Shown in pieces: positions 8,208 through 47,098 of a DNA stretch of 64,000 bases; within the stretch, counting starts at the first letter, position 1; each line of letters opens with the position of its first letter. Location of the stretch: NCBI GenBank assembly GCA_964248365.1, contig CAXTYC010000023.1:11598-75597 (forward strand), in the 5' to 3' direction. The notes beneath the pieces were generated by a model. That model saw only the letters and a program-made list of their open reading frames with translations, ran no database searches and had not been told where the DNA came from. The DNA is from an uncultured Chroococcidiopsis sp. (lineage in GTDB: Bacteria > Cyanobacteriota > Cyanobacteriia > Cyanobacteriales > Chroococcidiopsidaceae). Position numbers and translations under genes: made by a program.

Positions 8208-11200
8208 GTGCAGAAATCTCAAGAGCAACAGCAAGCGATCGCAACCACTTTCATACAGGAACCACTTGCAGCATCTAGCGTTACAGATCAGCAGATGGTG
8301 CAAGCGGCTATACTTGCCGATCCTTCAATTGATGAGTGTGTTGTACTAAATCGAGCAAAGGAACCCACTAGAGAGCTTGTTGCTTACGTAGTCTCTAGGG
8401 GAAAGTTCTCTCCAGAGCAGATCCAATCTCACTTGCAAGCTAGTCTGCCTTCAGATCTTTTAGCGATCGCCTATGTACCTGTGTCTAAACTGCCCCTTAC
8501 TCCTACAGGACAAGTGGATGAGCAAGCTTTGATTGCTCTAGAGGTGGTCGATTCTGACTTGGTGCAAAGATGGGAAACTCAACTGCAATCCCTGCCAGAA
8601 ATTGAGCAAGCAGCCCTCGTAGTTCAAGAGTATATAGAAACTTCTCCCCCGCTACATCTGTCAGATTTGCTGCCCGATTGGAAGTCCACCCCAAGCACTA
8701 GTACTGCAACCACAATTACAACTGCAAGCTCTTTTGATGCTATTGAAGAAGCAACCGAATCCAAGGCACTAGCCATCAGCTACGGCGGATCTCTGCCTGA
8801 AGAACCTAATGCTCCCACCACTCTACCAGAAGTTCTGCAAAGAGCAGCTCGTCAAATTCAGGGAGATAGCATTGTCTACCTCCAGCCAGACGGCACAGAA
8901 ATCTTTCAATCTTATGGGGATTTAGTGGAGGAGGCAGAGCGAATTCTAGCTGGACTGAGAAAGCTAGGGTTGAAACCTCAAGACAAAGTAATTTTACAAC
9001 TGGAACTCAACCAAGACATTATCCCAGCGTTCTGGGGTTGTATTTTAGGAGGCTTTATTCCCGTAATTATGGGAGTAGCACCGACTTACAGTTCATCCAA
9101 TAATGCAGTAGACAAGCTGTGTAATGTTTGGCAGTTATTAGATCAGCCTTTAATATTAACCACCCAAGCACTCCAAAAATCAGTACAATCTCTAACTCAA
9201 TGGCTACCCGCTGAAGATTTTCAAGTAAGCTCAATTGAAGCATTAAGAAAAAACACTGCTGATAAATCATATCACCCTTGTAAACCAAATGATCCGGCAT
9301 TTTTCAACCTGACTTCTGGCAGTACCGGAATGCCAAAATGTATCAGTCTGACTCACTGGAATCTAATATCTCGCGCTATAGGAACTAATATCCTCTCTCA
9401 CCACGACTGTGAAGATGTAATTCTAAATTGGCTGCCTTTCGATCATATTGGTAGTATTTCAGACTGGCATATTCGCTGTGTTTACTTAGGCTGTAAACTT
9501 ATTTATACAAATAAAGAATATATTCTTGGTCACCCATTAAACTGGTTAGATTTAATTGATAAATACCGCATTACTCATAGCTGGGCATCTAACTTTGCCT
9601 ATGCCTTGATTTATGATGCCCTCAAACAAGAACCTGAACACAAATGGGATCTATCCTGCGTCAAATCCTTACTCACCGCTGGAGAAGCTGTTTCTTCCAC
9701 TGCTGTGAAGGATTTTATTGAAAGTCTTGCTGTTCATGGTTTCAAAAAAACAGCCATTCGTCCAGCTTTTGGCATGGCAGAGATGGGATCTGGTATTACT
9801 TACTATCAGCCAACAGAAGAAAATCCTCTACTTTTTCATACTGTTGACAAATCTTCTTTAAAAGGCTCCATTAAAAGAGTAAGTGCAGAGCATCCAAATT
9901 GCACAACTTTTACAGATTTAGGTCCAGTGATTCCTGGGGTATCGATTCGGATTGTAGACAAGGAAAACTCACTGTTATCTGAGGATACAATTGGTTGTCT
10001 ACAAGTAAAGGGCGATGCTGTATTTGCTGGCTACTACAAAAACCCAGAAGTCAATAAAGAAGTATTTGTAGAGGATGGCTGGTTTAATACCGGAGATTTA
10101 GGATTTATTTCCGATGGTCATCTGGTTGTTACAGGTAGGGCTAAAGAAACCATTATTATTAATGGAGCCAATTATTACAACCATGAAATTGAAGCGGTAG
10201 TAGAAGAAATTGAAAGAGTTGATGTTTCTTATACTGCTGCCTGTGCTGTGCGGGATGCTAAGGGTACTACCGATAAATTAGCAATCTTTTTCAGTGCTTG
10301 CGGTGTTGATGAAGAGCATCTAATTGAATTGCTAAAGCAAATCCGGCAAACAGTTGTTGGCAAAGTGGGGGTAAATCCTGATTACTTAATTCCTGTTGAA
10401 AAGGAGGTTATTCCCAAAACAGCAATTGGTAAAATTCAGCGATCGCAACTAAGCAAACTTTTTGAAGCGGGTGAATTTGACCATATTCTCAAACGCTTAG
10501 ATATTCTGCTCAAAAACGCTAATACACTGCCAGACTGGTTCTATCGCAAAAGCTGGCGACCGAAAGAAGTTGTATCTTTAAATATTCAACCTCTGACGGG
10601 TCAAACTCTGGTGTTCCTTGACTCATTAGGAATGGGTGAGTTGATCGGTGCAGAACTAAGCCGTCAGTACCAGCCATGTGTCAGCGTCGAGGTGGGGTCA
10701 GATTTTGTTCAGTTGAGTAGCGATCGCTATCAAATCAATCCTCAAAACCCTGACCACTATCGGCAACTACTTGAGTCTGTTTCAGAATGCACTTTACAAA
10801 TTGGTCAAATTCTGCATTTATGGAATTATGACAATTATGCTGGCGAAATTTCAAGTCCAGAGGAACTAGAGCAGGCGCAGGAAAGAGGAATCTACAGTTT
10901 GCTGTTCTTGGTGCAGGCGCTGGCTAAAGTTCAGAGTTCTGAGCATCCAGTTCGCTTGTTAGTTGCAGCTAGTCACACCCAGCCTACCTCGGCATCTGAC
11001 AAAGTTGCGGCTCAAAAAGCGCCGATGTTGGGTTTGATTAAAGCAGTGTCTCAGGAATTATCTTGGCTGGACTGTCGCCATGTGGATTTATCTCTAGACA
11101 CGGTAGAAATCAATGCTGAGCAAATACTGCGAGAGTTACGAGTTTTGCAGCGATCGCCAGAAGTAGCTTACCGCCAAAATCAGCGTTTGGTTCCCTGCTT

Positions 11201-13454
11201 GGAGAAAGTTGACTGGAGTCAGGAGCCAGAGCAACAACTGCCTTTTAAGCAAGGTGGAATGTATCTGCTGAGCGGTGGTTTAGGTGGTATTGGTGTTGAG
11301 ATTGCTAAGTATCTGTTGCAAAATTACAATGCTCGGTTACTGTTGGTAGGTAGAACTGCGTTACCAGAAAGAAACACATGGGATGCGGCTTTAAAGGAAA
11401 AAAATGCTGTGCGAGAGCGGATCGAGGCTTACCTATCTCTAGAACAACTGGGAGGAGAGATTGCATATCAGGCTGTTGATATTTGCGATCGCATTCAATT
11501 GCAACAGGTAGTTGATCGAGCTAAGTCGCTTTGGCAATGTGAACTAGATGGAGTAATTCATCTAGCAGGAACCGCACCAGAACGCTTGTTAGTTGACGAA
11601 ACTCGTGACAGTTTGGCAACAACCCTGCGTCCCAAGGTTTTGGGTACTTGGGCGTTGCATCAATTGATTAAAGACCAGCCAAACAGCGTTTTTATCAGCT
11701 TCTGTTCGTTGGCGAGTTTCTTTGGCGGCGCGATGATTGGTGCTTATGCTGCTGCTAATAGTTTTCTAGACTGCTTTACCCACTATCAGCGATATCATCG
11801 TTCATTGCAGAGCTATTGCTTTGCTTGGGGGATGTGGGAAGCGATCGGTATGAGCCGGAATTCTCAAGCAAAGGATTTACTTCGTGCCAAAGGTTATCAA
11901 GCTGTGACGCTAAAGCAGGGGATGCATTCACTGCTGATAGGTTTGCACCACGATCAAGGGCAACTACTGGTAGGTTTGGATGGCAGTAACCGCAATATCC
12001 GACGGTATATAGAACCGCAGTTGTGTCGCCGTGTTCAGACACTATCTGCTTATTTCACTGCTAACACCGATTTATTGCTCTCAGGTAGGTTAGAAGCATT
12101 GTTAGTGAGCGATCGCTTCGGCACACCAAGTAAATGCACCTTTCGGCAGATCCAGCAAATGCCGCTAACAGATACAGGTGAAATCGACCGCACACAGCTA
12201 GCCGCAATTGGTCGTGCGGGAGCTGCCGATCAGGTGAAGCCGACAACAGAACTAGAATGCCAACTAGCTAGCATCTGGCAGCAGGTATTGGGGGTTTCCC
12301 AAGTAGGCATCCATGACAACTTCTTTGAGTTAGGTGGGAGTTCACTACAAGCCGCGCGTTTATTTGCTGAAATTGAAAAAACCTTTGGCAAAAATCTGCC
12401 CTTGGCTACCCTCTTTGAAGCTCCAACAGTCGCGCAGCTTGTCACTCTTATCAGCACACAAGAAGAGTCAGTATTGTGGTCTTCGCTGGTTCCGATTCAA
12501 ACTGGGGGTTCTAAGCCACCTTTGTTTTGTATTCATGGAGCTGGTGGCAACATTCTCATGTACCGCCAACTAATACCTTACTTAGATTCAGAGCAACCAA
12601 TTTATGGAATACAGCCAAAGGGACTAGATGGACATGAGACACCCCTTAACCGGATTTCAGAAATGGCGAGTGTTTATGTCAATGAAATGCGTGACTTGCA
12701 ACCTGAAGGACCCTACTACTTGGCTGGTTTATCTGCTGGTGGCTTAATTGCCTTTGAGATGGCACAAGTCCTTCAAGCTCAGGGTCAACAAGTGGCAATG
12801 CTTGCCTTAATCGATCCTCACGCTCCTGGTTATCCCAGATTATTGCCTGTAGTACCTCGATTATTATCATTGCTACCTTATGCAGCTTACCATTTAGCCA
12901 AAAGAAGCCCATCTCGTATAGCTAAGCTGTTCCAATCTAGACTATCGCAAGCTCGTTCACAATCACAGCAAGCAGTCAGTCAAAGCTATGCAACAAGTGA
13001 AAATCTTCAACAGAACGAGGGATTAGAGGTATCGATCAATAGCAATAGAAACTTACCTCGAAAAATTAATTCTTTGCGCGATCGATTGGAATATTTCAGC
13101 CTCTGGCTTTTGAAATTTACTCCCTGGGCATTTCTTGTGCCGAGGTTTTACTTAGAGGAGGCGAATTCTTTACCTAACTCTCTTCAGAAGATTCAAAAAG
13201 CCAATGTTGAGGCAATGCTTTCTTACAATGCCCAAGCCTATCAAGGTCGGGCAATCCTGTTTCGCGCTAGCGAACAACCACCCGGATGTTACCCCGATCC
13301 CCAGTTGGGCTGGAGTAATTTAGTGGCTGGAGGACTTGAGGTTTACCAAATCCCTGGCTATCACAGTGAATCTTTGCTGTATGAAGAACGAAGTGTTCGA
13401 GTTCTTGGCAAGCAGTTGAAGACTTGCTTAGATCGAGCGATCACAAATAAGTAG
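8208..13454 (+). CDS. Stand-alone NRPS-like enzyme: (Asub remnant)-A(keto-acid type)-KR-T-TE
   Basis: A: LTSGSTGMPK, NWLPFDHIG, FGMAE, FNTGDLG, GRAKETIII, PKTAIGKIQR. KR: SGGLGGIG (11271) and YAAAN. Carrier: DNFFELGGSSL (Ser codon 12342). TE: GLSAGG (Ser codon 12732) and PGYH. No condensation domain. GTG start preceded by GGAGG. Confidence 0.9.
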   Translation: MQKSQEQQQAIATTFIQEPLAASSVTDQQMVQAAILADPSIDECVVLNRAKEPTRELVAYVVSRGKFSPEQIQSHLQASLPSDLLAIAYVPVSKLPLTPTGQVDEQALIALEVVDSDLVQRWETQLQSLPEIEQAALVVQEYIETSPPLHLSDLLPDWKSTPSTSTATTITTASSFDAIEEATESKALAISYGGSLPEEPNAPTTLPEVLQRAARQIQGDSIVYLQPDGTEIFQSYGDLVEEAERILAGLRKLGLKPQDKVILQLELNQDIIPAFWGCILGGFIPVIMGVAPTYSSSNNAVDKLCNVWQLLDQPLILTTQALQKSVQSLTQWLPAEDFQVSSIEALRKNTADKSYHPCKPNDPAFFNLTSGSTGMPKCISLTHWNLISRAIGTNILSHHDCEDVILNWLPFDHIGSISDWHIRCVYLGCKLIYTNKEYILGHPLNWLDLIDKYRITHSWASNFAYALIYDALKQEPEHKWDLSCVKSLLTAGEAVSSTAVKDFIESLAVHGFKKTAIRPAFGMAEMGSGITYYQPTEENPLLFHTVDKSSLKGSIKRVSAEHPNCTTFTDLGPVIPGVSIRIVDKENSLLSEDTIGCLQVKGDAVFAGYYKNPEVNKEVFVEDGWFNTGDLGFISDGHLVVTGRAKETIIINGANYYNHEIEAVVEEIERVDVSYTAACAVRDAKGTTDKLAIFFSACGVDEEHLIELLKQIRQTVVGKVGVNPDYLIPVEKEVIPKTAIGKIQRSQLSKLFEAGEFDHILKRLDILLKNANTLPDWFYRKSWRPKEVVSLNIQPLTGQTLVFLDSLGMGELIGAELSRQYQPCVSVEVGSDFVQLSSDRYQINPQNPDHYRQLLESVSECTLQIGQILHLWNYDNYAGEISSPEELEQAQERGIYSLLFLVQALAKVQSSEHPVRLLVAASHTQPTSASDKVAAQKAPMLGLIKAVSQELSWLDCRHVDLSLDTVEINAEQILRELRVLQRSPEVAYRQNQRLVPCLEKVDWSQEPEQQLPFKQGGMYLLSGGLGGIGVEIAKYLLQNYNARLLLVGRTALPERNTWDAALKEKNAVRERIEAYLSLEQLGGEIAYQAVDICDRIQLQQVVDRAKSLWQCELDGVIHLAGTAPERLLVDETRDSLATTLRPKVLGTWALHQLIKDQPNSVFISFCSLASFFGGAMIGAYAAANSFLDCFTHYQRYHRSLQSYCFAWGMWEAIGMSRNSQAKDLLRAKGYQAVTLKQGMHSLLIGLHHDQGQLLVGLDGSNRNIRRYIEPQLCRRVQTLSAYFTANTDLLLSGRLEALLVSDRFGTPSKCTFRQIQQMPLTDTGEIDRTQLAAIGRAGAADQVKPTTELECQLASIWQQVLGVSQVGIHDNFFELGGSSLQAARLFAEIEKTFGKNLPLATLFEAPTVAQLVTLISTQEESVLWSSLVPIQTGGSKPPLFCIHGAGGNILMYRQLIPYLDSEQPIYGIQPKGLDGHETPLNRISEMASVYVNEMRDLQPEGPYYLAGLSAGGLIAFEMAQVLQAQGQQVAMLALIDPHAPGYPRLLPVVPRLLSLLPYAAYHLAKRSPSRIAKLFQSRLSQARSQSQQAVSQSYATSENLQQNEGLEVSINSNRNLPRKINSLRDRLEYFSLWLLKFTPWAFLVPRFYLEEANSLPNSLQKIQKANVEAMLSYNAQAYQGRAILFRASEQPPGCYPDPQLGWSNLVAGGLEVYQIPGYHSESLLYEERSVRVLGKQLKTCLDRAITNK

Positions 13455-39893: not shown

Positions 39894-40670
39894 GTGAGTT
39901 CAGTCTGTATTGAAATTGTAGAGGGGAATCCACATTTGCGATCGCTGCTGTGTTGGCACTTGCAACAGGTAGGCTATCGAGTGCATCAAGCCGCCAGTCT
40001 TTACCAAGCGCGAGATGTGTTTTTAACACGCCAGCCAACATTGATCGTACTTGATACTGAACTTGCCGATGGTGATGGACTCGAATTTTGCCGTTGGTTA
40101 CAGCGACAGCAACAGCCGTTAATTTTAATGCTGTCTATCCGTAACACTGAAACTGATATTGTCACTGGGCTGAAGGCAGGAGCAGATGATTATCTCACAA
40201 AACCATTTGGGATGCAAGAGTTTTTAGCGCGGGTAGAAGCACTATTGCGGCGAAATCGTACACCAGTTGCACCTGCATATTTGGATTATGGAATTTTACA
40301 AATCGATTTGGTGCAGCGTCGTGTGTGTTTTCAAGGCGAATACATTGATTTGACACCCCAGGAATTCAGCTTGCTCTATGTTTTAGCTCAAGCGGGTGGT
40401 TTACCTTTGAGTAGATCGGAATTGCTACGTCGCGCTTGGCCTGATGCAATCGATAATCCTCGTACTATAGATACTCATGTGCTGTCTCTACGCAAAAAAG
40501 TCGAAACTGATCCGCGACAGCCTAGTTTAATTCAAACTGTGCGTAATGTGGGATATCGGTTTAATGTAGAAATGCTCAAAGCAACGAGTGTACAGCCATC
40601 AGAGGCATTCAAGCGTCAAAAGTCCAGTACCGATCATCCTCAGCGCTCAGCCTTGAGTAGTCAGTTTTGA
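39894..40670 (+). CDS. nrrA: OmpR-family nitrogen-regulated response regulator NrrA
   Basis: SVCIEIVEGNPHLRSLL...AWPDAIDNPRTIDTHVLSLRKK as recalled for All4312/NrrA; canonical NtcA promoter upstream. Confidence 0.9.
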   Translation: MSSVCIEIVEGNPHLRSLLCWHLQQVGYRVHQAASLYQARDVFLTRQPTLIVLDTELADGDGLEFCRWLQRQQQPLILMLSIRNTETDIVTGLKAGADDYLTKPFGMQEFLARVEALLRRNRTPVAPAYLDYGILQIDLVQRRVCFQGEYIDLTPQEFSLLYVLAQAGGLPLSRSELLRRAWPDAIDNPRTIDTHVLSLRKKVETDPRQPSLIQTVRNVGYRFNVEMLKATSVQPSEAFKRQKSSTDHPQRSALSSQF

Positions 40671-41100: not shown

Positions 41101-42342
41101 ATGAGTAATGTCCAGGCAAAATTTTCAGCAACCGAAAATACATTTCATGTAGAAGGCTACGAGAAAATTGAGTTCAGTTTCGTCTTTGTCAACGGCGCTT
41201 TCGATGTAAAGAACACAGAACTAGCAGACAGCTACAAAAAATTTGGTCGTTGTCTAGCTGTAGTTGACCATAACGTGAATCGGCTCTACGGAGAGCAAAT
41301 TGAAGCATATTTCAAGCACTACAACATTGACCTTACCGTCTTTCCTGTTGCAATTAGCGAACCTACTAAGACCATAGAAACATTTGAATCAATCATAGAT
41401 GCTTTCGCAGATTTCGGTCTGGTACGTAAAGAGCCAGTGCTAATTGTAGGCGGCGGATTGGTGACAGATGTTGCAGGCTTCGCTTGTGCGGCTTACCGTC
41501 GCAGCACCAACTACATCCGCATTCCCACTACACTAATCGGTTTAGTCGATGCAGGAGTAGCAATCAAAGTTGCTGTCAATCACGGGAAGCTCAAAAACCG
41601 CTTGGGTGCATACCACGCACCACAAAAAGTGTTGATGGACTTCTCCTTCTTGCGGACACTCCCCACGCCAGAAGTCCGTAATGGTATGGCGGAATTGGTG
41701 AAAATTGCTGTTGTCTCAAACGCCCAAGTGTTCGAGCTGCTGTGCGAGTATGGGGAAGATTTACTTAATACTCACTTTGGCTACCTTGGCGGTACGGGCG
41801 AACTGAAGGAAGCCGCTCATCGGGTGAAATATGAGTCGATCAAAACGATGCTAGAATTGGAGACTCCCAATCTCCACGAGCTAGATCTAGACCGCGTAAT
41901 CGCCTACGGTCATACTTGGAGTCCTACATTAGAATTGGCTCCGGCTGTACCACTGCTGCACGGTCATGCAGTAAATATTGATATGGCATTGTCAGCAACG
42001 ATCGCAGCGAAGCGGGGTTACATTACAATCGAAGAGCGGGATCGCATTTTGGGACTAATGAGCCGCATCGGTTTAGCCTTGGATCATCCTCTACTCGATA
42101 GCGACCTATTGTGGTATAGTACACAGTCGATCACCCAAACGCGAGACGGATTACAACGAGCTGCAATGCCAAGACCAATTGGACATTGCTTCTTCGTCAA
42201 CGATATGACGCGGGAAGAACTCGATGCAGTTCTTGCCGATCACAAACGCATCTGTGCCTCGTACCCCCGTGCTGGTGCAGGTGTCGATGGCTATGTAGGT
42301 AGCTACCAACAAAATTTAGTGGAGAGTACAGCCAATGTCTAG
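41101..42342 (+). CDS. mysA: Sedoheptulose-7-phosphate cyclase (DDG/EEV synthase) for mycosporine synthesis
   Basis: [54 protein letters not shown]. Confidence 0.95.
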
Positions 42343-43168
42343 TGCTGCTGACGTGGAAAGTCCTCGTCCCGTCACACCATTGGGTATTTTGGTAGAGCAT
42401 CTCGAAACTGCGGTAAGCATGGTCGAGGCAGAACCAAATGTGCCTACTGCTGTAAAAGCGCACTTACAAAAAGCCTTGCGTCTGGGCGCAGGTTTAGACC
42501 CTTACATCGAAGAGTATACGACAAAAGAATCTCCAGCCCTGAGCGCGATCGCCCAAAAAACTCATACTGAGGATTGGAGTAAGCGGTTTTCAGATGGTGC
42601 TACCGTGCGTCAATTAGAGCAAGAGATGCTGTCGGGACACCTGGAAGGGCAGGTACTCAAGATGTTCGTCTACATGACCCGTGCCAAAAGCATATTGGAC
42701 ATTGGGATGTTTACAGGGTACTCAGCTCTTGCGATGGCAGAAGCTTTACCTGCTGACGGGTGTTTAGTAGCCTGTGAGGTGGATCAATATGTCGCCTCTT
42801 TTGCCCAAGGTCTATTCCAAGGTTCCCCGCACGGGGCAAAAATTCAGGTCGAATTAGGTTCAGCACTTGCTACCCTCGAAAAGCTTGCACAAAAGGAAGA
42901 ATCCTTCGATTTGGTATTTATTGATGCCGACAAAAAGGAGTATGTGCAGTATTTCCAAACTTTGTTGGACACTAACTTGCTAGCACCTCAAGGGTTTATC
43001 TGTGTAGACAATACCTTGTTGCAGGGACAAGTTTACCTTCCCGAACAAGAAAGAACCCCCAATGGAGAAGCGATCGCCACTTTCAACCAGGTCGTTGCTA
43101 ACGATTCCCGTGTTGAGCAAGTGATACTGCCTTTGCGAGACGGCTTGACGATCATCAGGCGAGTGTAG
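42335..43168 (+). CDS. mysB: O-methyltransferase of mycosporine synthesis
   Basis: [37 protein letters not shown]; overlaps mysA by 8 nt. Confidence 0.95.
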
Positions 43169-43170
43169 TC

Positions 43171-43233
43171 ATAGGGGCGGGTTTAACAAACAATCAATTG
43201 GGCAATAGATAACCCAAATAAACCCGCCCGTAT
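43171..43233. repeat. REP-like palindromic element between mysB and mysC
   Basis: ATAGGGGCGGGTTTA...TAAACCCGCCCGTAT, same arms as 35898-35961. Confidence 0.75.
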
Positions 43234-43277
43234 CCACGTTCTAGGGGTGAGGTTGATCCACACTTTTAAGGCTATAT

Positions 43278-44642
43278 ATGGTGCAACAACAATCTACACA
43301 AGGGCGTGTTTTCGCCGCCTTCCAAAATTTGGGGACGCTGGCGTTACTGGCGATCGCTTTTCCCTTTAACTGCATCGTCGTCTTAACATCGCTGCTATGG
43401 AACTTTTTGAGCCGACCGTTCCAGCAGCAAGTTGTTTTCAACCCCAATTCCAAAAATATCTTGATCGCTGGCAGTAGGATGACTAAAGCCCTTCAGCTAG
43501 CGCGATCGTTTCATGCCGCTGGGCATCGAGCCATTTTAGTTGATACCGATAAATACTGGTTAGCTGGTAATCAATTTTCCAACGCTGTCGCTGCCTCTTA
43601 CACAGTACCCGATCCAAGCAAAGATTTAGAAGGCTATACTAAAGCCCTATATGCGATCGCCATCAAAGAAAAGATCGACTTTTTTATTCCGGTAGCCATT
43701 TTCGCTGTCATCTACTATGACTCGCAAGGTAAACCACCGTTACCAGACGATGTAGAGTTTTTCCACTTCGATGCTGATGTCACAAAAATGCTAGATGACA
43801 AGTTCGCCTTTGCCGAAAGGGCGCGAAGTTTCTCGTTATCAGTCCCCAAATCGTTCCTAATTACCAACCCCGAACAAGTCCTCAACTTCGACTTTTCCAA
43901 CGAGAAAAATAAGTACATCCTCAAAAGCATTCCCTACGACCAAATACGTCGCTTGGATCTCACCAAGTTACCTTGTGATACCCCAGCGCAAACAGCAGAA
44001 TTTGTCAATAGTCTGCCTATCAGCCCAGAGAAGCCCTGGATTATGCAGGAATTTATTTCCGGCAAGGAATACTGCACTCACAGTACCGTAAGAGACGGAG
44101 AGACAACAATGTACTGCTGCTGTGAGTCATCCGCCTTTCAAGTCAACTACGAAAACGTTGATAAGCCTAAAATTATGGAATGGGCGACTCATTTTGCCAA
44201 AGAACTGGGACGTACTGGGCAGCTCTCCTTTGACTTTATTGAGGCTCCTGACGGAACTCCTTACGCGATCGAGTGCAACCCCCGCACTCACTCTGCCATT
44301 ACTATGTTTTACAACCACCCAGGAGTAGCGGATGCCTATCTCGATAAAGACGTTGCAAGCAAAACCTCTACAATTTATCCTTTGCAACCGCTTCCTGATA
44401 GTAAGCCTACCTATTGGCTGTACCACGAACTCTGGAGACTTAATGAGGTTAGATCGTTAAAGCAATTACAAACTTGGGTAAGAAATATTTTGCGGGGGAA
44501 AGACGCAATTTTTGAGGTGAGCGATCCCCTACCCTTCCTGATGGTACACCACTGGCAAATTCCCTTACTCCTGCTCGACAATCTATTAAGACTCAAAGGC
44601 TGGATCAGAATAGATTTTAACATTGGTGAACTTATAGAGTAA
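43278..44642 (+). CDS. mysC: ATP-grasp amino-acid ligase of mycosporine synthesis
   Basis: MTKALQLARSFHAAGH, LDDKFAF, WIMQEFISGKEYCTH, IECNPRTHSAIT. Confidence 0.93.
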   Translation: MVQQQSTQGRVFAAFQNLGTLALLAIAFPFNCIVVLTSLLWNFLSRPFQQQVVFNPNSKNILIAGSRMTKALQLARSFHAAGHRAILVDTDKYWLAGNQFSNAVAASYTVPDPSKDLEGYTKALYAIAIKEKIDFFIPVAIFAVIYYDSQGKPPLPDDVEFFHFDADVTKMLDDKFAFAERARSFSLSVPKSFLITNPEQVLNFDFSNEKNKYILKSIPYDQIRRLDLTKLPCDTPAQTAEFVNSLPISPEKPWIMQEFISGKEYCTHSTVRDGETTMYCCCESSAFQVNYENVDKPKIMEWATHFAKELGRTGQLSFDFIEAPDGTPYAIECNPRTHSAITMFYNHPGVADAYLDKDVASKTSTIYPLQPLPDSKPTYWLYHELWRLNEVRSLKQLQTWVRNILRGKDAIFEVSDPLPFLMVHHWQIPLLLLDNLLRLKGWIRIDFNIGELIE

Positions 44643-44647
44643 AAATT

Positions 44648-45825
44648 ATGCCTTGGTAGCCTCTCAACAAGTATTGCTGAGATTTCTGGTTCGCTTGGCA
44701 AGGGGAAACTTTATATGTTTTCTATCTCCAAGCTAATAAACTCACTTGTAGCTACAATCCAGAACGAAGACATAATTTAGCATCTATTGGTCACGCCGTC
44801 TTGACTAATTTTGGTTGGCAAGAAATCAATCCCGATCAGCCAGTCATTTCAAACAGAGATGGAAACTTTTGGAATAATCTTTCAATTTGGACAGGAAGTA
44901 TTATCGAAAAAGAAGGCTTATATTATCTGTTCTACACAGCAAGATGCAAAGACGAAGCGTGGGTGGAAACACCTTACGAGCGACGTATACCTCAAAACAT
45001 TGGTGTAGCTGTGTCGGAGGATTTAAAGACTTGGACTAGAACCCTCACCTCGTTAGAAAAACCTGTTATTCCCAATCCTGGTATAGATAGTCAATTTGAC
45101 GGCATAAACTGGCGCGATCCTTATGTGATTAAAGACGATATAGATGGGCAGTTTTATGCTTTTATCTGTGCTCATCCAAAAGATACTTCTGCCGATGCTG
45201 GTGGTGTTATCGCTTATGCCACTTCTAAGGATTTATCTAATTGGCAAGACGAACCTTATCGAATTTTGTACAGCAGCAATAAATTTTTATTTACTGAAGT
45301 TCCTCAAGTTTTTTGGCGAAAGACTAACGACTTGAAATCCTGGCGCTTGTACTTTTTGTTTAGTCCTCGCTGGAGTTCCTTTTTTAATAGAGAAATACCA
45401 ACTGGTATTACATATTATGTCCATTATGTACCCATAGAAAATAGAAAAAAGGTCAGTTATGACAATATTCCTTGGGAGACAGAGCCAGCTAAGATACTTG
45501 TTAAAGGTCTACATGGTGGGAAGCTGATCGAGCCAGAAAAAGAAGAAAATCCGGTTCATCATTATAATGGTATGTTTCTGACACAGTTGAAGGTCCTTAT
45601 CATCCAAGAAATGAAGATGACTTTATTGTCAAAGGTAGCGAGACAACTGGAATGTATGGAACCAACTTTCTGCAAGTATCGACAGATCCAGAAGAATGGA
45701 TTGCTTATGGTTGGTATCACAGATTGCACGCTTTAGCAGTTTCCCAAGCGTTTCGAGTTGACTGGAAGAATACATGGAATCTGGATACTTTGAAAATTTC
45801 TCTTACCAGTACAGGGCTTAAGTGA
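44648..45825 (+). pseudogene. GH32/GH68/GH43-like five-bladed beta-propeller glycoside hydrolase, disrupted
   Basis: From ATG 44648: MPW*PLNKYC*DFWFAWQGETLYVFYLQA...RHNLASIGHAV (stops at 44657 and 44678), in frame with ORF 44801 (WTGS, WRDPYV, FTEVPQ); second frameshift near 45560, with the shifted frame (WYVSDTVEGPY...) ending TGA at 45823-45825. Confidence 0.75.
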
Positions 45826-45830
45826 GTTTC

Positions 45831-45883
45831 GCGCAAAGACGCAAAGGCGCTAAGAAGCTCTTTGTGTCTTTGCGCCTTTGCGT
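45831..45883. repeat. CGCAAAG-type hairpin repeat
   Basis: CGCAAAGACGCAAAGGCGC...CTTTGTGTCTTTGCGCCTTTGCG; partial copies near 37750 and 57977. Confidence 0.65.
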
Positions 45884-45946
45884 GAGATAATACCACCGAG
45901 GAATCCTTTTAGGGCAAAATAGTAAGTTGCAGCATTCGGTCAGTTT

Positions 45947-47098
45947 ATGCCCTCTCGTTCACTTGATGCTTATGAGAGTACAGCTACCCAAAAGCAAGTA
46001 ATTGGTGTAGCAGTAGTGGGGACTGGATTTGGTCAAAAAGTCCACATCCCTGGATTTGATGCTAATCCCCAAACTCAGGTAGTTGCTGTTTATCATCAGG
46101 ATTTGGAAAAAGCAAAAGCGATCGCCTCCTCTCACAACATCCCCCACGCTTGTCATACAATTGACGATATCCTTGCCCTGCCCGAAGTGCAAGCAGTCAG
46201 CATCTCGACACCGCCATTTCTACATTACGAGATGGCGAAACAAGTCATACAAGCGGGAAAGCATCTGTTACTAGAAAAACCTACAACTCTGAGTGCAGAG
46301 GAAGCACGAGAGTTATATCATCTGGCTAAACAAAAAAGAGTAATTGCTACCCTGGATTTTGAATATCGCTTTGTTCCAGCATGGCAGTGTTTAGCAGAAC
46401 TGCTATCTGAAGATTATGTAGGTAAGAAGCGTTTAATTAAAATTGATTGGCTAGTTTCCAGTCGTGCTGATGCATCCCGTCCTTGGAATTGGTATTCTCG
46501 TAAAGATCAAGGTGGTGGAGCGTTGGGAGCATTAGGTTCTCATGCTTTCGATTATATTAACTGGTTATTTGGTTCGGTAAGCAAATTGTGCGCCCATCTA
46601 AGTACTAGCATACCAATGCGACCCGATCCAGTTAGCGGGGAATTGAAGCGGGTGGATGCGGATGACACCTGTACGATCATGCTGGAATTAGCAGATGGTA
46701 CGCCTTGTCAGGTTTGTATTAGTGCGGCTGTCTATGCGCCTCGTACTCATGGTGTAGAAGTTTATGGCGATCGCGGTACTCTAGTTTTAGGCAGTAATAA
46801 TCAAAAAGATTATATTCACGGGTTTCATCTGTCAGGTAGTCAAGCCGGACAACCTTTAGTCCAGTTAGAAATTCCCATGCGTCTTAATTTTGGCAAAACT
46901 TACACTGATGGGCGCATTGCAGCATTTATTCGAGTAGTAGATTACTGGGTACAAGCAATTGACAAAGGGGAAGCAACAGCACCCTCACTGCGCGAAGGCG
47001 TTTACTCTCAGTTGTTGATGGATCTTAGTCACACCTCCCATCAACAGCGCAGTTGGGTAGATGTACCTCAGTTAGAAACGTTTTTGGCTGGTGGTTAA
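45947..47098 (+). CDS. Gfo/Idh/MocA-family oxidoreductase
   Basis: VVGTGFG, HLLLEKP, GGGALGALGSHAFD. Confidence 0.93.
   Translation: MPSRSLDAYESTATQKQVIGVAVVGTGFGQKVHIPGFDANPQTQVVAVYHQDLEKAKAIASSHNIPHACHTIDDILALPEVQAVSISTPPFLHYEMAKQVIQAGKHLLLEKPTTLSAEEARELYHLAKQKRVIATLDFEYRFVPAWQCLAELLSEDYVGKKRLIKIDWLVSSRADASRPWNWYSRKDQGGGALGALGSHAFDYINWLFGSVSKLCAHLSTSIPMRPDPVSGELKRVDADDTCTIMLELADGTPCQVCISAAVYAPRTHGVEVYGDRGTLVLGSNNQKDYIHGFHLSGSQAGQPLVQLEIPMRLNFGKTYTDGRIAAFIRVVDYWVQAIDKGEATAPSLREGVYSQLLMDLSHTSHQQRSWVDVPQLETFLAGG

Follow-up and report, generated by a model that had tools for sequence, protein, structure and literature searches.

The product of the mysABC genes of mycosporine-like amino acid (MAA) biosynthesis is mycosporine-glycine (Balskus and Walsh 2010, reviewed in PMC10666671). 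In the canonical clusters these three core genes are joined by a gene for a second ligase, mysD in Nostoc punctiforme (NpR5600-5598/NpF5597) and the nonribosomal peptide synthetase (NRPS)-like mysE in Anabaena variabilis (Ava_3858-3855). Glycosylation of MAAs has been assigned to the glycosyltransferases MysG (GT4) and MysJ of Nostoc sp. UHCC 0302, and it was only in 2024 that a first glycosyltransferase was tied to this modification (PMC11378024). For terrestrial cyanobacteria, few of the enzymes that attach sugars to MAAs or anchor them have been identified, and MAA clusters are being mined intensively for natural sunscreens. Here we describe a mys locus in a 64,000-nucleotide stretch of contig CAXTYC010000023.1 from an uncultured Chroococcidiopsis sp. 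(the whole stretch is referred to below as the window), in which the three core genes and their order are those of the canonical clusters, whereas the slot of mysD or mysE is occupied by the wreck of two genes that resemble glycoside hydrolases (GH) of clan GH-J, here termed g1 (GH32-like) and g2 (GH68/levansucrase-like). In relatives this slot holds the two genes together with a MysF-like methyltransferase.

We regard it as very nearly certain that 44648-45825 of the window is the dead, fused remnant of a two-gene module found 3′ of mysABC in many terrestrial cyanobacteria, and that it gives no active product. The g1 ATG (44648) follows the mysC stop (44640-44642) after a spacer of only 5 nt, and the frame opens with MPW*PLNKYC*DFWFAW, in which the asterisks mark the two in-frame stops listed in Table 1. 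The remnant still encodes Asp12 of the nucleophile motif, WTGS (44888-44899), RDP (45113-45121) and Glu217 of TEVP (45296-45298), and it scores 49 bits against Pfam GH32N, for which the cut-off is 22. The first-pass annotation of this DNA had reported a GH32/68-like frame with these motifs and two stops at this distance from mysC, and its description of these features is confirmed. The longest open reading frame (ORF) at the locus (44801-45736, 311 aa) begins past the nucleophile Asp and ends in out-of-frame sequence, and this annotated 311-aa "GH32" ORF is a chimeric pseudogene. Decoding of TGA as tryptophan or read-through of TAG was ruled out, as both codons end ordinary genes of the window (TGA, for example, that of a response regulator) and the deletion described below disables the gene anyway.

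The break at the 3′ end of g1, which had been annotated as a frameshift within one gene, proved to be a deletion at ~45555 that fused two different genes. The nearest locus with both genes intact is that of L001, a Logan assembly in which mysA-mysB-mysC are followed by tandem propeller genes g1 and g2. In a tblastn comparison with these two genes, 44648-45556 of the window corresponds to g1 residues 1-303 (82% identity), and 45529-45822, read in a different frame, to g2 residues 285-383. The alignments of contigs from environmental relatives (urban, air and surface metagenomes) break off at the junction points: one continues from 45552 into VFIGFPLEDE, which is the sequence of intact g1, and two enter at 45555 from QKV(D/N)SKRVTN, which is that of intact g2. 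These placements, the contig breaks and a base-level comparison show that ~1.06 kb is missing. As only the last 91 codons of g2 remain, all three of its catalytic motifs are gone. At the amino acid level the g2 remnant matches the C-terminal part of the intact g2 in a close relative, L075, with 92% identity and L001 g2 with 65%, and it contains a third stop, an in-frame TAA (45565-45567) in place of a Tyr of the relatives. The three stops and the deletion are disabling and fall at positions that intact orthologues conserve, and no alternative product retains the catalytic residues.

The ratio of nonsynonymous to synonymous substitution rates (dN/dS) is 0.13 for the g1 remnant relative to L001 and 0.10 for the g2 tail relative to L075, values as low as those of the intact mys genes, and we consider the inactivation recent for this reason. 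L075 itself has an intact 384-aa g2 and only ~350 bp of stop-ridden g1, and lost g1 independently of the window strain. That the strain in fact has intact g1 and g2, with the stops and the deletion introduced by faulty sequencing or assembly, is very improbable; although the lesions were read from the assembled contig, there are four independent ones, among them a clean deletion of 1.06 kb whose flanks are both in place, and g1 has decayed in a different way at the same locus of L075. A further environmental relative (run X3) matches the end of mysC and the first three g1 codons (44648-44656) and then, from a loose end at 44656, runs into unrelated, stop-containing sequence, which suggests another independent loss or rearrangement of g1 in the lineage.

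The mysABC genes upstream are intact: cyclase, Methyltransf_3 protein and ATP-grasp ligase are adjacent and co-directional, with the right order and overlaps. The trio is 76-93% identical to that of L001 and L075, with mysA at 78-93% aa identity to the first mys-cluster gene of the two loci (93% for MysA of L075). No second ligase, either D-Ala-D-Ala-ligase-like MysD or NRPS-like MysE, adjoins mysABC or is found among the window ORFs of at least 150 aa that were scanned (an NRPS at 8208-13454 was not counted), in agreement with the earlier description of the locus as mysABC without mysD/E. Since there is no active g1 or g2 product, the locus is now left with the route to mycosporine-glycine alone, and for annotation purposes the mys locus of this genome alone should be credited with at most that compound. 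Two observations concern the operon and its surroundings. An OmpR-type response regulator (39894-40670), 430 nt 5′ of mysA and in synteny with L075 (82% by blastn from 39819 onward), could be a dedicated regulator of the mys operon. In L075 (6773-9646) mysC is present twice in tandem between mysB and the g1 remnant, the copies having 74% and 88% identity to the single mysC of the window, which recalls the MysC duplications that reportedly occur in desert Nostoc.

Species-representative genomes were scanned with a g1 profile, followed by tblastn and ORF clustering, and metagenomes were scanned with a g2 profile. Intact orthologues stand directly behind mysABC at 13 genome or Logan loci and nine metagenome loci, distributed over several cyanobacterial orders. 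The order mysA-mysB-mysC-[class II methyltransferase]-g1-g2 is carried by Myxacorys (two species), Elainellaceae, Chroococcidiopsidaceae (two), metagenome-assembled genomes (MAGs) labeled Thermosynechococcaceae (two), a Synechococcales bin, Microcoleus sp. FACHB-1515 and a Leptolyngbyaceae MAG. The Microcoleus strain (L020) is in culture, and Leptolyngbya sp. FACHB-36 (L019) has MT-g1-g2 on a contig that ends too soon on the upstream side to reveal mysABC. Reduced layouts also occur, namely mysC-g1 in Aliterella and mysABC-methyltransferase (MT)-g2 in Coleofasciculaceae. Because the metagenome loci include mysABC-g2 as well as mysABC-MT-g2, g2 emerges as the constant partner of the mys genes. 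The flanks of the mys-linked loci carry housekeeping genes, and as no other conserved gene family recurs there, they contain no mysD or mysE; large flanking ORFs of the relatives that were considered as candidates for a MysE-like NRPS are leucyl- and isoleucyl-tRNA synthetases (LeuRS, IleRS), GlgB, GlgP and similar proteins.

The g1-g2 module is repeatedly and tightly attached to mysABC, and the layout mysABC-(MysF-like methyltransferase)-(GH32-like)-(GH68-like) without mysD/E, which we met in no paper that could be searched, is a variant MAA cluster with wide conservation. The first-pass annotation had made its proposal depend on whether intact orthologues are associated with mys genes, and at these 13 and nine loci that association held. 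Its description of the slot was right about a glycoside hydrolase gene after mysC and incomplete otherwise: the module normally also has the methyltransferase, and its constant partner is the GH68-like g2. In a soil metatranscriptome, a few low-depth contigs match a Myxacorys relative at mysA, mysC, the methyltransferase and g1; they are too thin for a statement on co-transcription and give weak support to joint expression of these genes. The coordinates of the features of the window and the identities of the mys-linked loci are collected in Table 1.

Table 1. Features of the mys locus in the window and related loci with the module directly behind mysABC.
Feature	Position or loci	Strand	Description
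mysA	41101..42342	+	Intact, 413 aa; 3-dehydroquinate-synthase-like sugar-phosphate cyclase, desmethyl-4-deoxygadusol synthase type; Pfam DHQ_synthase + DHQS_C
mysB	42335..43168	+	Intact, 277 aa; O-methyltransferase, Pfam PF01596 Methyltransf_3, 175 bits; start overlaps mysA stop
mysC	43278..44642	+	Intact, 454 aa; Pfam ATP-grasp_3; NCBIfam PRK06849, 485 bits (cut-off 406); stop TAA 44640-44642
g1 pseudogene remnant	44648..45554	+	GH32-like beta-propeller, catalytic domain only; codons 1 to ~302 of ~345; 82% identity to L001 g1 over 303 residues
In-frame TAG, g1 codon 4	44657..44659	+	Orthologues have Q, H, Y, L or F
In-frame TGA, g1 codon 11	44678..44680	+	Takes the place of the invariant Trp (TGG) in the W-D-x-W nucleophile motif
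Deletion junction	45553..45556	+	~1.06 kb lost relative to L001: g1 codons ~303 to end, intergenic spacer, g2 codons 1-293; remnants mutually out of frame
g2 remnant	45555..45825	+	GH68/levansucrase-like beta-propeller, last 91 codons only; native stop TGA 45823-45825
Hairpin, near-perfect, 63 nt	45826..45888	+	Directly 3′ of the stop of the remnant; fold of 45815-45905 = -41.1 kcal/mol, z = -5.8; single copy in window
mys-linked genome/Logan loci	L001, L009, L011, L012, L014, L015, L017, L020, L021, L022, L023, L043, L069		mysA-mysB-mysC-(MT)-(g1)-g2
mys-linked metagenome loci	L075, L076, L083, L084, L088, L089, L094, L100, L101		Include mysABC-g2 and mysABC-MT-g2 layouts

The class II methyltransferase (Methyltransf_2 + Dimerisation) lies between mysC and g1/g2 in 15 of the 24 clustered loci and in metagenome loci besides. 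It is absent from L001 and from the window, where mysC and g1 are only 5 nt apart. The protein is 63% identical to the product of the first gene of a methyltransferase-TauD-NRPS row on plasmid pn1 of Nostoc sp. UHCC 0926, which is the mysF-mysI-mysE cluster (PMC10510106), and its nearest solved relatives are natural-product phenol O-methyltransferases. Owing to this homology to MysF, the methyltransferase-g1-g2 set is tied to MAA metabolism even where it stands apart from mysABC. Such a block, composed of the MysF-like methyltransferase, a folate/biopterin-family transporter of the major facilitator superfamily (MFS), g1 and g2, was seen in Tolypothrix, Spirirestis and Hassallia (L002:1960-12280; also L004, L007 and L008). 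Genes close to it encode a conserved dehydrogenase of SagB type (510 aa), a GT1 glycosyltransferase (EryCIII-like) and a conserved 461-aa protein that matches nothing in Pfam or NCBIfam, and the block and these neighbors may form a larger tailoring locus.

With the read-through translation of the g1 remnant as the query, ~350 relatives were obtained. Intact g1 relatives have 340-350 aa and end soon past the point at which the frame of the window breaks (g1 of L001 has 352 aa). W11-D12-x-W14, W155-x-D157-P158 and E217-x-P219-Q220 are invariant in 18 diverse members, as is the W-[ST]-G-S block. Against the PDB, the g1 profile matched GH32 enzymes best (E ~4e-13), with RDP and the acid/base Glu (the EC of GH32) aligned, and the AlphaFold model of an intact orthologue (P0002; predicted local distance difference test, pLDDT, 89.7) is a five-bladed propeller for which Foldseek returned the GH32 endo-levanase BT1760 and beta-fructofuranosidases as best matches (E ~1e-12, TM 0.65). 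The GH32 C-terminal beta-sandwich (Glyco_hydro_32C) has no match in the g1 orthologues, which stop ~40 residues past the propeller, and for lack of it we call g1 GH32-like and not a typical GH32 member. The g1 tree gives full support to the cyanobacterial clade and places the window remnant as sister to L001; mys-linked members occur in three of the four cyanobacterial subclades, including the deepest one. Relatives further removed from g1, at 38-50% identity and from Acidobacteriota, Melainabacteria and other groups, lie within sugar-uptake loci alongside a canonical GH32 enzyme of two domains and genes for a TonB-dependent receptor, MalK-type ATPase, binding protein and permeases, a setting that supports genuine fructoside chemistry for the family. 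In Acidobacteriota of the Blastocatellia (L024-L055, e.g., L028:6350-15850) the conserved locus with the short g1-type gene additionally has an FG-GAP/ASPIC protein and a long tetratricopeptide repeat (TPR) protein, and looks like a fructan-utilization system.

Intact g2 proteins have ~380-405 aa (407 in L001), and 17 members share invariant W56-D57-P58-W59, R190-D191-P192 and E256-R257-P258. In the comparison of the g2 profile with the PDB, ERP and RDP aligned with those of Erwinia levansucrase, and Foldseek matched the g2 model, for which pLDDT is only 68.8, best to a GH68 inulosucrase and to levansucrases. The intact g2 orthologues thus have the features of GH68, a single-domain propeller with WD-x-W, RDP and ERP, and the window remnant does not. 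A search of the plasmid collection with g2 gave only distant actinobacterial and haloarchaeal GH32/GH68 matches. To judge from these sequences, what both families retain is a complete retaining-fructosidase active site, and g1 and g2 are predicted to act on sucrose or fructans as beta-fructofuranosidase/fructosyltransferase enzymes. The original GH32/68 assignment therefore holds by motif, profile and fold; the accompanying idea that such an enzyme might release MAA sugars from the sheath found no support, in that no signal peptide is visible in g1 or g2. Such a signal is likewise missing from Gram-negative levansucrases, which are nonetheless exported.

The reading that we favor, tentatively and with somewhat less than even confidence, is that the remnant comes from a module whose intact form fructosylates the MysABC mycosporine; MAA tailoring by g1 and g2 would fit the linkage to mys. 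In such a scheme g2 would be a retaining fructosyl-transferring enzyme that uses the Asp of WDPW as nucleophile together with the Asp of RDP and the Glu of ERP, and sucrose would be its fructosyl donor. Sucrose is a stress solute of these cyanobacteria. The acceptor would be the MysABC mycosporine, possibly once methylated by the MysF-like enzyme, and g1 might extend, trim or recycle the resulting fructoside, such that fructosylation would replace the MysD/MysE step as the means of diversifying or anchoring a mono-substituted mycosporine. That this amounts to a new sunscreen route in a broad group of subaerial and biocrust cyanobacteria, in which g2 moves fructose from sucrose to (methyl-)mycosporine-glycine with the help of g1 and the methyltransferase, is possible, if on the whole doubtful. 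Were it true, fructosyl or oligofructosyl mycosporines would be an undescribed class of MAAs, made by a transferase of glycoside hydrolase fold and not by a glycosyltransferase, and could account for the oligosaccharide-linked mycosporines of extracellular sheaths.

Several points weigh against fructosylation of the mycosporine. There is no fructosylated MAA on record, and the sugars reported on MAAs are hexoses and pentoses (galactose, glucose, xylose) attached by glycosyltransferases (PMC11378024, PMC10666671). The pair stands without mys at ~17 loci, or ~40% of those with enough flank; these include the methyltransferase-MFS-g1-g2 layout of Tolypothrix, Spirirestis and Hassallia away from mys, and several genomes with g1-g1′-g2 triples and no mys, once beside an MFS_2 sugar symporter. 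The mys-linked state may derive from one ancestral arrangement, in which case the mys-linked loci are not independent events. The distant relatives of g1, moreover, are found in ordinary fructan/sugar uptake loci with canonical GH32. The mys-free loci and these distant relatives favor the main alternative, a serious if less likely one, under which g1 and g2 are a sucrose/fructan enzyme set (a levansucrase-like synthase and a GH32-like hydrolase, comparable to sacB-levB) within a shared response to ultraviolet light, osmotic stress and desiccation; adjacency to mys would then reflect co-regulation or the supply of precursor (sucrose to fructose, fructose-6-phosphate and sedoheptulose-7-phosphate), and there would be no substrate in common with the MAA enzymes. 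The canonical GH32, ATP-binding cassette (ABC) sugar transporter and TonB-dependent receptor of the fructan-utilization-like loci, the mys-free triples with their sugar symporter in one case, and folds that are those of ordinary fructosidases and fructosyltransferases all speak for this explanation, as does the co-regulation of MAA and sucrose genes by OrrA in Nostoc flagelliforme (PMC13131328). A methyltransferase of natural-product type that stays with the pair even when mysABC is elsewhere is, however, hard to accommodate in plain sugar metabolism, and operon-like spacing as tight as the 5 nt of the window also argues against it.

That the linkage has no functional meaning and is a frozen accident, a single ancestral juxtaposition inherited vertically, is compatible with the g1 tree, which allows a single origin of the mys-linked state, and with the frequent occurrence of the pair away from mys. 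We nevertheless consider it improbable, because gene order and tight spacing are kept across lineages in which g1 is only 57-70% identical, and because the recurrent layouts (mysABC-g2, mysABC-MT-g2 and mysABC-MT-g1-g2) all have g2 at the mys end. Slimmer still is the chance that g1 and g2 perform non-glycosidic chemistry on the C7 cyclitol ring, a carbasugar that resembles the ketofuranose center, for example by replacing MysD/E and adding the second substituent, perhaps after O-methylation of the ring by the methyltransferase. Such a role would agree with the lack of mysD and mysE in the mys-linked flanks and with the identity of both families to characterized GH32/GH68 enzymes, which is only ~15-22%, but the full glycosidase triad and RDP, and in g1 also WTGS, are invariant, which argues for true fructoside chemistry. 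To our knowledge, ring chemistry of this kind is without precedent in clan GH-J, and this too counts against it.

Downstream of the module remnant, contigs of relatives break or are substituted at 45826, 45857 and 45908, in the region of the hairpin, which is probably a terminator or a small inserted palindrome; these breaks suggest that it may not be a terminator only. A GFO/IDH/MocA oxidoreductase (45947-47098), similar to inositol or levoglucosan dehydrogenases, lies 3′ of the remnant; it was considered as a member of the module and rejected, as its synteny is limited to the close relative L075 and other lineages do not conserve it by the module.

In the literature we found no report linking GH32/GH68-like genes to mys clusters, and the co-mentions of mycosporine and fructofuranosidase, to the extent that the texts were accessible, appear to be unrelated. 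If the intact module acts as we propose, it could provide both a new product class and a sucrose-driven means of derivatizing mycosporines that dispenses with nucleotide sugars. Work on a specialized metabolite, and not on plain sucrose, has a precedent within clan GH-J in ASFF1, the GH32 invertase-like protein of acylsugar metabolism in wild tomato (PMC6482016); it is a hydrolytic plant enzyme of an unrelated pathway and serves as an analogy only. The likeness to the mysF-mysI-mysE cluster of UHCC 0926 pn1 (PMC10510106) lies in the methyltransferase, which has the same domain architecture. In that cluster, though, MysF is accompanied by the TauD dioxygenase and the NRPS and is predicted to N-methylate palythine, whereas the methyltransferase of the module stands with g1 and g2 and with no enzyme for a disubstituted MAA. 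Like the GH68 levansucrases and inulosucrases of Erwinia, Pseudomonas and Halalkalicoccus, g2 is a single-domain protein of five-bladed fold with WD-x-W, RDP and ERP motifs. Compared with characterized GH32 and GH68 enzymes, g1 lacks the C-terminal sandwich and g2 has a helical N-terminal extension of ~50 residues. The levansucrase and levanase genes of Bacillus subtilis form a pair, sacB-levB, and a GH68 gene beside a GH32 gene mirrors it; g1-g2, however, is tied to a secondary-metabolite operon and not to a sucrose regulon. What the mysABC-linked module shares with the MysG/MysJ system of UHCC 0302 is its setting, with candidate sugar-tailoring genes inside the mys cluster of a terrestrial cyanobacterium. 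MysG and MysJ belong to the Leloir glycosyltransferases, draw on nucleotide sugars and modify disubstituted MAAs, whereas g1 and g2 have a glycoside hydrolase fold, are predicted to use sucrose and belong to clusters without a second ligase.

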